Below the pieces are notes generated by a model. That model searched no databases. It saw only the letters and a program-made list of their open reading frames with translations, and was not told where the DNA came from. 64,000 nt of DNA, taken from UHGV virus genome UHGV-0291501. One strand, written 5' to 3'. Below are positions 35,924 to 36,372 of this stretch, in pieces (the stretch's first letter is position 1; the number at the start of each line of letters is the position of its first letter). Source of the stretch: a virus. The translations under genes and the position numbers were made by a program.

Positions 35924-35930
35924 AAAGTTG

Positions 35931-35958
35931 TTGACATAGAAAATTTGGTGAGTATACT
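35931..35958 (+). promoter_or_regulatory. Near-consensus sigma70-type promoter TTGACA-N16-TATACT
   Basis: Read directly just after the ligase stop; would transcribe into the G/T-rich non-coding region. Confidence 0.45.
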
Positions 35959-36035
35959 GAGCAGCATAAACCAACGGGTACTCACCAGCATCACTTAAGA
36001 GTCTTCTAAGAGGGTTTTTAAGTAATGTGATGTTT

Positions 36036-36119
36036 GGTTTGGTGTGGTCAGGTAATGTGATGTCTGGTTTAGTGCGGTGATGTGCGGTCCGGTAAGGTCC
36101 GGTGCGGTAAAGTGCGGGT
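36036..36119 (+). repeat. Phased pentamer tract 1A: about 17 tandem (G/N)GTNN units
   Basis: ggttt ggtgt ggtca ggtaa tgtga tgtct ggttt agtgc ggtga tgtgc ggtcc ggtaa ggtcc ggtgc ggtaa agtgc gggta; strict 5-bp phase. Confidence 0.7.
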
Positions 36120-36177
36120 AGTTAGTCTCAGCTACATTAAAATGAGACTTACCTTTTTAAAAGGTCTTTAAGAGGGT
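36116..36177 (+). repeat. 62-bp hairpin module, copy 1 (identical to 37527-37588)
   Basis: gggtagttagtctcagctacattaaaatgagacttacctttttaaaaggtctttaagagggt; 7-bp stem agtctca/tgagact; 15-bp palindrome acctttttaaaaggt. Confidence 0.75.
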
Positions 36178-36186
36178 TTTTTAATG

Positions 36187-36270
36187 AGGTAGGGTAAAGT
36201 AATGTTTGGTCTGGTTTGGTAAGGCGCGGTCTGGTTTGGTAAGGTAAGGTTCGGTATGGTATGGGTGGAT
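36187..36270 (+). repeat. Phased pentamer tract 1B: about 17 GGTNN units
   Basis: ggtag ggtaa agtaa tgttt ggtct ggttt ggtaa ggcgc ggtct ggttt ggtaa ggtaa ggttc ggtat ggtat gggtg. Confidence 0.7.
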
Positions 36271-36297
36271 GGTAGTAGCCACGTTAAAAATCTACCA
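36270..36297 (+). other. Stem-loop (6-bp stem, 16-nt A-rich loop) conserved with a compensatory change in region 2
   Basis: tggtag-tagccacgttaaaaat-ctacca here versus tggcag-tagccttataaaaaat-ctgcca at 37671-37698. Confidence 0.5.
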
Positions 36298-36372
36298 AGT
36301 TTCTAAAGAGTCTTCTGTTGAGGGTTCTTTACAAACAACTTAACAATCAACTAAAGTGTGGAGCTAAATGCT

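Follow-up and report, generated by a model that had tools for sequence, protein, structure and literature searches.

Phased GGTNN pentamers of a Felix O1-like phage as the very probable upstream guide-RNA array of a type II VIPR system

What kind of element is a gene-free stretch of phage DNA in which G and T return in the same phase of every five nucleotides? The question is raised by positions 35924-36372 of the window, which is the whole 64-kb stretch of viral DNA that was analysed (64,000 nucleotides, UHGV-0291501). The preliminary description assigned the repeats to no class known to its author; the class has, however, been named and characterized in 2026 preprints as the vrRNAs of VIPR (Viral Interference Programmable Repeat), a phage-encoded, CRISPR-like system of RNA-guided DNA silencing. 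VIPR was first described in these two non-peer-reviewed preprints (bioRxiv 10.64898/2026.04.26.720920 and 10.64898/2026.04.26.720927). The phased GGTNN pentamers of the window are vrRNAs, the guide RNAs of VIPR: the signal is genuine, its class is already published, and the locus is no new class but an already known kind. As judged from the sequence, region 35924-36372 very probably holds the upstream array of guide RNAs in a type II VIPR system, and its carrier is a Felix O1-like phage (Felixounavirus).

Layout, phasing and structure of the repeat tracts

The region lies between the ligase stop at 35923 and the next gene, which starts at 36373. It was described as ORF-free, and indeed no ORF of at least 60 aa is found there; the ORFs that overlap it are just one of 33 aa on the minus strand and one of 35 aa on the plus strand. 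Small ORFs in the tracts (e.g. MFGLVW) were ruled out because the periodicity is 5, not 3. The same architecture recurs at 37464-37687, and therefore the window holds four tracts, not two. The features of the locus are the following.

35931-35958, plus strand: sigma-70-type promoter TTGACA-N16-TATACT, from a consensus scan
35959-36020, plus strand: 5' leader from promoter to first repeat, read from the sequence and conserved in relatives
36021-36117, plus strand: vrRNA-1 tract, 19 GGY/NN pentamers; NN: AA GA TT TT GT CA AA GA CT TT GC GA GC CC AA CC GC AA GC
36116-36153, plus strand: vrRNA-1 3' tail, H-type pseudoknot of 38 nt by covariation, with a T5 run at 36154-36158
36154-36184, plus strand: spacer/leader of 31 nt from vrRNA-1 to vrRNA-2, with TTTTTAAAAGGTCTTTAAGAGGGTTTTTTAA, a motif also found ahead of tracts 3 and 4
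36185-36264, plus strand: vrRNA-2 tract, 16 YNNGG units; NN: GA AG AA AA TT CT TT AA GC CT TT AA AA TC AT AT
36263-36296, plus strand: vrRNA-2 3' tail pseudoknot, by covariation with other tail types
36297-36372, plus strand: degenerate leader-like sequence, then the vipr ribosome-binding site (GGAG 36360-36363), read from the sequence
36373-36960, plus strand: vipr, 195-aa minimal RAMP (Cas7-like), 191/195 identical to PDB 36pp "SUSP1 Vipr protein"
36963-37403, plus strand: vap (vipr-accessory protein, presumed vap1), 146 aa, directly after vipr
37415-37430, plus strand: terminator-like hairpin and T-run after vap, then the vrRNA-3 leader motif, from a sequence scan
37464-37528, plus strand: vrRNA-3 tract, 13 units; NN: GA AG AC AT GG AG GA CT TT AA AG CT AT
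37527-37564, plus strand: vrRNA-3 3' pseudoknot tail, with the same sequence as that of vrRNA-1
37596-37655, plus strand: vrRNA-4 tract, 12 units; NN: AA TA TA CT GT AG TA GG TA TT AT TT
37654-37687, plus strand: vrRNA-4 3' tail pseudoknot, S1 AAGG / CCTT, S2 GGCAG / CTGCC

The promoter had been called strong; it matches 11/12 of the consensus, and comparison of relatives finds it unchanged across 7 related phages. Transcription of the upstream vrRNA array presumably begins here, and that of the vipr-vap operon possibly does too. An 8-bp inverted repeat (GGTGAGTA 35947-35954 / TACTCACC 35979-35986) overlaps the -10 element and has its 3' arm inside the 5' leader. The leader ends in AAGAGGGTTTTTAAG, a motif that recurs ahead of every tract. 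The downstream tracts, vrRNA-3 and vrRNA-4, begin beyond the terminator-like hairpin at 37415-37430, which, as regards their transcription, is a point against the VIPR reading.

GT keeps one phase through the 19 and the 16 consecutive pentamers of the first two tracts, and in the best 85 nt 17/18 GT dinucleotides share it. When the 64-kb window was simulated 100 times under a Markov-1 model, the highest count of in-phase GT per 85 nt was 6.6 on average, and no simulation went beyond 9. With 2 mismatches tolerated, (GGTNN)6GGT is matched 29 times by the window and 0 times by 100 dinucleotide-preserving shuffles. The Fourier power of G at period 5 is 3.2 in tract 1 and 5.9 in tract 2, against an average of 0.25 and a maximum of 1.4-1.7 in shuffled tracts (n=1000), and the two tracts have no power at periods 3, 4, 6, 7 and 10. 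The non-random 5-bp phasing of the preliminary description is upheld by these analyses. Its two tracts of about 17, mostly GGT, pentamers are present as phased tracts, but with 19 and 16 units and as two of four in the window; the GT phase is held, but eight units of vrRNA-1 are degenerate (TGT/AGT). With 19 units, vrRNA-1 is outside the 9-16 pentamers per RNA published for vrRNAs (2026 preprints), which, like its degenerate units, counts against its fit to the VIPR definition. This tract also holds an internal 12-nt duplication, and both halves start with GTAATGTGATGT, a typical vrRNA 5' start.

Among close relatives GGY is conserved, while NN is hypervariable and nearly random. Over 87 tracts from 22 near-identical genomes, the pentamer profile is G 0.78 / G 0.98 / Y 1.00, the information is 1.0, 1.8 and 1.6 bits at G, G and Y vs 0.11 and 0.13 bits at NN, and the distinct NN strings number 60. 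The vrRNA-2 guide is common to 5 of the 22 genomes compared, the window included, and the number of units ranges from 8 to 20 between close relatives. Such differences in length, like the duplication in vrRNA-1 and the pure (GGTCA)n or (GGTTC)n arrays that make up 27 of 120 pattern matches in IMG/VR, would be in keeping with neutral pentanucleotide micro- or minisatellites, produced by replication slippage and functionless. Slippage, however, would copy whole units, and here GGY is fixed and NN close to random. Moreover, a relative whose protein identity is only 37% still has tracts on the sense strand around vipr, in DNA of unrelated sequence, the association with strand and gene is strict, and the flanking pseudoknot covaries. 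The probability of a functionless satellite is practically nil.

This pseudoknot is formed by two stems. In the vrRNA-1 tail these are S1 (GTAG 36118-36121 / CTAC 36132-36135) and S2 (AGTCTCA 36124-36130 / TGAGACT 36143-36149), and in the vrRNA-2 tail S1 (GTGG 36265-36268 / CCAC 36279-36282) and S2 (GGTAG 36271-36275 / CTACC 36292-36296). Both stems of the vrRNA-4 tail are compensatory relative to vrRNA-2. Over 16 distinct tails, the H-type pseudoknot model has 90.9% of cells paired vs 29-39% with the partners slid, 9 of the 11 pairs change on both sides, and the covariation score was attained by 0/500 shuffles. The 62-bp hairpin module described earlier between the tracts is structured, but it is actually the 38-nt vrRNA-1 tail plus the 31-nt spacer; likewise, the conserved stem-loop after the tracts is a conserved structure, but that of the 3' pseudoknot tail of a guide RNA. 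By analogy with the published system, each tract and its tail would be one vrRNA. The exclusion of CRISPR, REP and tRNA was borne out, with no match at E<=1 in an Rfam 15 scan of 35000-38500. A gathering-threshold Rfam scan of 12 other tract-bearing loci returned one tRNA and nothing else; the tRNA-like sequence that follows the tract in one locus (L052) is not called as a tRNA by ARAGORN and was set aside.

Vipr, Vap and the proposed mechanism

The preliminary description overlooked the adjacent gene for a Cas7-like RAMP and the second pair of tracts after the two-gene cassette. The encoded 195-aa protein is 98% identical to SUSP1 Vipr (E=6e-128 against PDB 36pp; profile E=1e-79), which exceeds the preprint cut-off for the SUSP1 clade (>90% identity). 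Its AF2 model has a pLDDT of 95 and matches Csm3 and type VII Cas7 in Foldseek with probability 1.0 and TM about 0.5; nearly all of the top 40 matches are Csm3, Cmr or type VII Cas7 subunits (E 5e-5 to 1e-3). The modelled RAMP/Cas7 fold supports relatedness to the CRISPR-Cas effectors, not membership. The locus does not show a CRISPR-Cas array of identical repeats and contiguous spacers: the variable parts are themselves GGY-phased pentamers.

In SUSP1, one Vipr protomer binds each GGY (2026 preprints). The GGY-contact residues listed in that work were read off the window protein sequence, and H17, E71, M72, R138, C173, D177, W178 and R179 are all in place; R138 and R179 are invariant over 47 homologues. 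Homologues of vap follow vipr in 35 loci, and vap1 is described as a predicted DNA-binding enhancer of silencing (2026 preprints). Vap has no match in Pfam, NCBIfam or PADLOC, and its single-sequence model (pLDDT 68) is faintly winged-helix-like, with weak best Foldseek matches (E 0.2-0.4). For the two proteins together, Pfam, PHROGs, NCBIfam and PADLOC gave unknown-function PHROGs alone, and VIPR models are absent from Pfam, NCBIfam (June 2026), PADLOC and Rfam 15.

Type II VIPR is defined by vipr and vap flanked by intergenic YNNGG arrays whose invariant tail contains a pseudoknot (2026 preprints), and the window locus is assigned to it because it agrees with this definition feature by feature. 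In the SUSP1 and P. fulva systems, vrRNAs of ~100 nt are expressed, co-purify with Vipr and repress target transcription, and small-RNA sequencing of the SUSP1 locus, near-identical to that of the window, gave discrete non-coding RNAs (2026 preprints). The earlier suggestion of a discrete non-coding RNA agrees with this sequencing. Transcription, processing to ~100 nt, RNP formation and silencing would be expected in the window phage by transfer from the SUSP1 and P. fulva experiments.

In the proposed mechanism, the promoter at 35931-35958 would transcribe two vrRNAs, and two further vrRNAs would be made downstream of vipr-vap. Vipr protomers would polymerize along the vrRNA, one per pentamer, each GGY being flipped out and sequestered and the NN dinucleotides presented; these steps are shown for SUSP1 and extended to the window by identity. 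The concatenated NNs would then pair with a double-stranded DNA target with every third base skipped (NNx NNx ..., as shown for SUSP1). Pairing would form an R-loop triplex and block transcription, again as shown for SUSP1 and here by identity, and the purpose would be the silencing of competing mobile elements. GGY would serve as the handle for the protein, the address being written in the two free positions; with one protomer per pentamer, the 5-nt phasing would reflect one protein subunit per repeat.

The association between motif and protein extends to other viruses. The pattern (GGTNN)7GGT, used alone, fetched 120 IMG/VR loci, 50 of which contain a Vipr-family ORF, on the same strand as the tract in 50/50 and at a median distance of 95 nt; most of the remaining loci are the pure microsatellites (27) or truncated loci (24). 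The search of related phage genomes for (GGTNN)n proposed earlier found tracts in close and distant relatives: where an ordinary coding gene was looked for, non-coding tracts are kept at the same position in all 18 close and some distant relatives.

The promoter leads into G-rich, C-poor sense-strand tracts, with the ligase/polymerase genes on one side and the next operon on the other, and GGTTGGTGTGG-like runs resemble two-tetrad G4 formers. This layout might suggest a replication origin, primed by a stable RNA:DNA hybrid (R-loop) or by a two-tetrad G-quadruplex. However, G-richness needs no conserved pyrimidine after GG, no strict 5-nt phase and no hypervariable NN. An origin is also at odds with the placement of tracts 3 and 4 after a terminator-like hairpin, with the identical architecture of a lone promoter-tract-tail-terminator unit in E. 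coli satellites, with the Cas7-like protein that accompanies the tracts in 50 unrelated viral loci and with the co-purification of the SUSP1 RNAs with Vipr (2026 preprints), and is extremely unlikely. The R-loop/G4 origin and a TRAP-like attenuator were early ideas, given up once Vipr had been identified and NN had proved hypervariable; a boxA-like antitermination site (GGTCTTTAAGAG vs rrn boxA), T7-primase-like NGGTC sites, Chi-like sequences and a UGGU sponge for tRNA CCA ends were dropped likewise.

Predicted targets of the guides

A VIPR target is recognized by an NN match of at least 80% under a 1-nt skip, and is mostly a satellite or a competing phage (2026 preprints). By this rule, units 1-10 of vrRNA-1 match an E. 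coli satellite gene (235-aa) at 19/20 NN positions (95%), and units 10-18 match the satellite tape-measure gene at 18/18. The vrRNA-3 guide matches a satellite intergenic region (L153, 11066) at 23/26 positions (88%), for which the 1-nt skip is needed, and the equivalent site in three other satellites at 20-21/26. The best matches of vrRNA-1 and vrRNA-3 sit in E. coli satellites L153 and L154, the predicted targets being L154 6576-6632, L153 5130-5186 and L153 11066-11103. Units 7-14 of vrRNA-2 have an exact 16/16 match in three satellites, and over the full length of this guide the NN match is just 66%; an exact-pattern scan of IMG/VR with it found nothing. There is no convincing natural target of vrRNA-4 in the six satellites examined. 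An IMG/VR match of this guide to one unrelated viral contig, with the skipped base on codon position 2, was rejected as probably due to chance.

The longest exact unit runs are 9, 8 and 8 with a skip of 1, at most 6 with skips of 0, 2 and 3, and at most 7 with shuffled unit order. Chromosomal flanks reach at most 75% NN match. No self-target of at least 80% lies in the 64-kb window, where the best NN match of any guide is 63-75%; absence of self-targeting is also reported for the preprint's own loci. In the target of the first half of vrRNA-1, the skipped base is codon position 1, not wobble; this, like the 66% match of vrRNA-2 and the outcome for vrRNA-4, tells against the VIPR reading. These sequence matches show in part that the guides of the window would be aimed at an E. 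coli satellite of ~11 kb whose Felix-like tail genes are borrowed; the phage would probably thereby silence a parasite or competitor.

The 19 units of vrRNA-1, the 12-nt start shared by its halves and the matches to two different satellite genes are the grounds for a tentative reading, possible though rather doubtful, of vrRNA-1 (36021-36153) as a naturally fused dual-specificity guide that arose from two guides. If true, recombination via the shared GGY scaffold would be a means of guide diversification without a Cas1-like adaptation machine, and about 9 matched units would be enough for targeting even with degenerate TGT/AGT handles.

The satellites also carry the same architecture themselves, as a single promoter-tract-tail-terminator unit, and ~80% identical copies of the vrRNA-2 tract and tail are found in 152 E. 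coli chromosomes. The orphan vrRNAs borne by satellites match the window at no more than 69% of NN positions and thus do not target it. They have no downstream gene to regulate, which speaks against a cis-acting 5' leader or intercistronic regulator of vipr and its neighbours, operated by a TRAP-like oligomer or by the ribosome on SD-like AGGU/GGUGA. A point in favour of such an element is that the tracts are without exception on the sense strand and sit either just ahead of a gene or between two genes (in locus L027 they end about 20-30 nt ahead of start codons); another is the likeness of triplets phased by 2-nt spacers to the TRAP binding site. TRAP sites in Bacillus consist of 11 (G/U)AG triplets with 2-3-nt spacers. 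On the other hand, a cis-regulator would not be expected to come with 60 guides in 22 near-identical genomes, the NN strings fit foreign satellite DNA when read in a specific gapped code, and the tract-binding protein is structurally known and presents the NN bases to DNA (2026 preprints). Cis-regulation as the function of the tracts is very unlikely; some autoregulatory side effect may arise from Vipr binding to its own mRNA leader.

Relation to known systems

The closest known system is the type II VIPR of SUSP1 (vipr, vap1, vrRNA1-4; PDB 36pp), to which the window system, known from sequence alone, is alike in its Vipr with identical GGY-contact residues, in the presumed vap after vipr, in GGY/NN pentamers that run into a 3' pseudoknot tail, in arrays that flank the two-gene cassette and in targets predicted within E. 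coli satellites of the same type. The two differ in arrangement, with two upstream and two downstream vrRNAs in the window and one and three in SUSP1, and in the guide (NN) sequences; the window vrRNA-1, with 19 units vs the 9-16 reported, looks like a two-guide fusion. SUSP1 is classified in a genus other than that of the window phage, Felixounavirus.

The backbones of class 1 CRISPR complexes (Cas7/Csm3/Cmr4) are similar in that a RAMP (RRM, G-loop, thumb) polymerizes on a guide RNA with a fixed period and regularly flipped bases, the guide is variable and carries a conserved handle as its cap, and Csm3 and type VII Cas7 are the best Foldseek matches. However, VIPR sequesters 3 bases in every 5 nt, whereas CRISPR flips 1 base in every 6 nt. 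In VIPR the guide is discontinuous, being confined to the NN, and 1 nt of the target is skipped at each step; the VIPR locus is virus-encoded, without CRISPR repeats and without an encoded nuclease. TRAP shares with VIPR the phased triplets, short variable spacers, single-stranded RNA and one oligomer subunit per triplet. It forms, however, a closed 11-mer ring that acts in cis on attenuation and translation, with uninformative spacers, whereas VIPR forms a helical RAMP filament in which the spacers are an information-bearing guide for DNA recognition in trans. ToxI-type antitoxin RNAs and phage pseudo-ToxI are likewise tandem RNA modules of phages and MGE, bound by a partner protein and variable in copy number; their units, in contrast, are 36-nt and identical, are cleaved by ToxN and inhibit it, and have no pentamer code, DNA targeting or RAMP partner.

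VIPR, encoded by a virus, is a minimal RNA-guided DNA binder that needs no PAM and uses a gapped code, and has been proposed as an ancestor of CRISPR effectors. The value of the window is confirmatory: the vrRNA signature was rediscovered by a blind read of the raw sequence, and the motif-protein association in IMG/VR, the pseudoknot covariation and the 1-nt-skip satellite targets independently reproduce central claims of both preprints. The tracts are not mentioned in the Felix O1 genome paper. Felix O1-like phages, widely used for typing and therapy, carry VIPR unannotated, and the relevant records label parts of the locus as "hypothetical protein", "repeat_region" or "StbAB binding site".

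The VIPR locus and its pentamer tracts

The ORF-free region 35924-36372 is the upstream vrRNA (guide RNA) array of a VIPR system, which bears out its preliminary description as non-coding, RNA-type and distinct from CRISPR, REP and tRNA. VIPR systems were defined in a 2026 preprint (bioRxiv 10.64898/2026.04.26.720920), where the locus comprises a minimal RAMP protein (Vipr), an accessory gene (vap) and vrRNAs. The latter contain 9-16 YNNGG repeats, with GGY conserved and the dinucleotide NN hypervariable, and end in a 3' tail that is invariant and includes a pseudoknot (10.64898/2026.04.26.720920). 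Judged by protein sequence, the VIPR of the window belongs to the SUSP1 clade (Vipr >90% identical to that of SUSP1); the region is already known, since this clade was characterised experimentally in 2026. By sequence comparison the phage is a Felix O1-like myovirus: positions 35000-37500 match 260 phage records at 80-97% identity (megablast), TH10 and KhF3 most closely, and nearly all of these are Felixounavirus from E. coli, Salmonella and Shigella.

Features of the VIPR locus (window coordinates)
34823-35923: DNA ligase gene, flanking the pentamer region upstream
35931-35958: promoter
36021-36117: tract 1 (vr1), 19 YNNGG units
36185-36264: tract 2 (vr2), 16 YNNGG units
36373-36960: 195-aa ORF (vipr), flanking the pentamer region downstream
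36963-37403: 146-aa gene, presumed vap by position and co-occurrence
37464-37528: tract 3 (vr3), 13 units, downstream of the next two genes
37596-37655: tract 4 (vr4), 12 units, downstream of the next two genes

As described earlier, no ORF of at least 60 aa crosses 35924-36372, and the near-consensus promoter is present (TTGACA-N16-TATACT, 11 of 12 consensus positions), being identical in 7 relatives. An 8-bp inverted repeat, GGTGAGTA (35947-35954) and TACTCACC (35979-35986), overlaps the -10 of this promoter and is kept in 7 relatives; it may serve as an operator or form a hairpin in ligase mRNA that reads through. In the KhF3 GenBank record (L001 4017-4027; KT184315.1 86014-86024), 11 bp within the vrRNA leader region carry the label 'direct repeat sequence4 possible binding site of StbAB', and other records give only 'repeat_region', 'terminator' or no label. 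Nothing seen here supports the StbAB-site, 'repeat_region' or 'terminator' labels.

The best 85-nt segment holds 17 GT sharing one phase; when the 64-kb window is simulated 100 times (Markov-1), the maximum averages 6.6, with a top value of 9. The motif (GGTNN)6GGT occurs 29 times in the window with up to two mismatches, compared with none in 100 shuffles. Fourier analysis confirms the 5-bp period, with a G power of 3.2 in tract 1 and 5.9 in tract 2 (shuffle maximum 1.4-1.7) and no power of G at any other period in these tracts. The phasing of the two upstream tracts is as first described, but their unit counts are 19 and 16 instead of about 17 each, and two further tracts lie downstream. These occupy a second ORF-free region (37404-37700), which is part of the same VIPR locus. 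It contains vr3 and vr4, each with a pseudoknot tail, and is bounded by a terminator-like hairpin (37415-37430), after which both guides come, and, on the other side, by the following gene's promoter (37707-37735).

Across 87 tracts from 22 near-identical genomes, the pentamer profile is G 0.78, G 0.98 and Y 1.00, with 0.11-0.13 bits at the NN positions and 60 different NN strings.

Vipr, the vrRNA tails and their association across phages

A profile of 47 homologues of the 195-aa protein retrieves PDB 36pp, 'SUSP1 Vipr protein' (E=1e-79), to whose chain the window protein is identical at 191 of 195 residues. Its AF2 model (pLDDT 95) resembles Csm3, type VII Cas7 and Cmr subunits (Foldseek probability 1.0, TM about 0.5). 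Cryo-EM structures in a second 2026 preprint (bioRxiv 10.64898/2026.04.26.720927) reveal a right-handed filament with one Vipr protomer per repeat, in which the residues H17, D177, R138, W178, E71, M72, R179 and C173 hold the flipped-out GGY. The RNA-DNA hybrid in these structures is gapped and wraps the non-target strand to give a triplex. The window protein has all eight of the GGY-holding residues.

The vrRNA tails are H-type pseudoknots, built from GTAG/CTAC with AGTCTCA/TGAGACT in vr1 and vr3, GTGG/CCAC with GGTAG/CTACC in vr2, and AAGG/CCTT with GGCAG/CTGCC in vr4. Over 16 distinct tails the pairing is kept in 90.9% of cells, versus 29-39% with the partners slid; both sides are changed in 9 of 11 pairs, and the covariation score is reached by 0 of 500 shuffles.

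The search for GGTNN tracts in related phages, proposed earlier, finds them at both intergenic sites in 18 of 18 close IMG/VR relatives. All are sense-strand; each site holds 1-3 tracts, and a tract has 8-20 units. A relative at 37% protein identity and of different base composition carries four (GGTNN)14-19 tracts, unrelated in sequence, which fill the intergenic spaces on either side of its counterpart of the 195-aa gene. An exact IMG/VR scan for (GGTNN)7GGT returns at least 120 stretches from very diverse phages. Among the 120 matches listed, an iterated HMM places a homologue of the 195-aa protein in 50, on the tract strand in 50/50 loci and at a median distance of 95 nt; the other 70 include 27 pure microsatellites and 24 truncated loci. 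This same-strand association in diverse phages indicates that tracts and protein form one system.

Satellite elements and guide targets

In SUSP1-infected cells four vrRNAs of ~100 nt are detected and co-purify with Vipr; double-stranded DNA is recognised by the NN dinucleotides with one base skipped per repeat, and binding of the target represses transcription (10.64898/2026.04.26.720920). The natural targets of 18 of the 20 assignable SUSP1-clade guides lie in an E. coli satellite phage (10.64898/2026.04.26.720920). In the present phage, by analogy, vr1 and vr2 would be transcribed from the 35931 promoter and trimmed of a leader of ~55 nt, and the vrRNAs would assemble with Vipr into an RNP that would silence its targets.

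When the locus is compared by BLAST with 5,426 complete E. coli genomes, no vipr is detected, and copies ~80% identical to the vr2 tract and tail appear in 152 chromosomes. These sit in an integrative element of ~11 kb encoding recombinases, a baseplate protein, a tape-measure protein and an HNH endonuclease, whose family is found in 545 of the 5,426 genomes. In the copies examined, which are 5 of the 7 loci fetched and 152 genomes by BLAST, there is a single orphan vrRNA served by a promoter and a terminator of its own, and no vipr. The element (L148 19900-20130; L149 10055-20900; L150-L154) occupies the wrbA-ymdF, yecD/DUF72 or tonB-yciI site in E. coli chromosomes. The L148/L149 orphan guide has an 81% NN match on other element copies and not on the phage window.

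The window guides were scanned against six satellite elements with skips of 0-3.

Best guide matches in the satellite elements (all with a 1-nt skip)
vr3: 23/26 NN (88%) in an intergenic region; 20-21/26 at this site in three other elements
vr1 units 1-10: 19/20 in a 235-aa gene
vr1 units 10-18: 18/18 in the tape-measure gene
vr2 units 7-14: 16/16 in three elements

At skip 1 the longest runs of exactly matching units are 9 (vr1), 8 (vr2) and 8 (vr3); no run exceeds 6 at skip 0, 2 or 3, or 7 once the unit order is shuffled. In 56 kb of chromosomal flank the NN match is at most 75%, and within the window no guide has a self-target of 80% or more. With respect to codons, the base skipped is the wobble base in the tape-measure target and position 1 in the 235-aa gene.

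The tracts might otherwise be an R-loop/G4 origin, a cis-regulatory leader of the TRAP type or a neutral microsatellite, but none of these three explanations fits all of four results: GGY is fixed and NN random, the tail covaries, a Cas7-like protein is strictly associated with the tracts in unrelated phages, and the guides have gapped matches to foreign DNA.

No convincing full-length target for vr2 (66% over its full length) or vr4 is found in the six elements, and an exact IMG/VR scan gives none for vr2. For vr4 it gives one match, on an unrelated viral contig (L155 4769-4797, IMGVR_UViG_3300017719_000783), inside a 478-aa structural-looking gene, with units 1-10 exact and 20/24 over the full guide. 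This match is probably due to chance, because it is the sole one and the skipped base is at codon position 2.

The two halves of vr1 both begin with GTAATGTGATGT (36022-36033 and 36052-36063), and their targets lie in two different satellite genes (L154 6576-6632 and L153 5130-5186). With its 19 units and these two halves, vr1 looks like a fusion of two guides, that is, a dual guide, and this is possibly the sole new detail here. Phage ASO1B (L003) carries the same guide.

Other array architectures

A low-GC jumbo-phage contig of 189 kb (IMGVR_UViG_3300029288_001872, L039-L042) has eight degenerate GGTNN tracts over four stretches; a strong hairpin follows those examined, and no Vipr-family ORF is found within the stretches. 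A related 182-kb contig (L038) encodes such an ORF. The pattern in L039-L042 points to vrRNAs scattered along a genome.

Back-to-back tracts of 9-14 units, linked by a 7-nt step (…GGCAGGT…) without a tail between, occur in three loci (L099 2827-3130, L111 2067-2571 and L064 39-336), and two other arrays (L058, L139) have a conserved hairpin of ~40 nt between tracts. Such layouts probably correspond to the 'staggered' and other architectures mentioned in the preprint; Rfam detects no hammerhead in the five arrays. Directly 3' of the vrRNA tract in L052 (825-880), and in the same sequence of L085, lies a tRNA T-arm-like GGTTCGATTCC flanked by complementary arms. Neither ARAGORN nor Rfam calls a tRNA at L052 825-880, and the T-arm-like sequence may be an alternative vrRNA tail.
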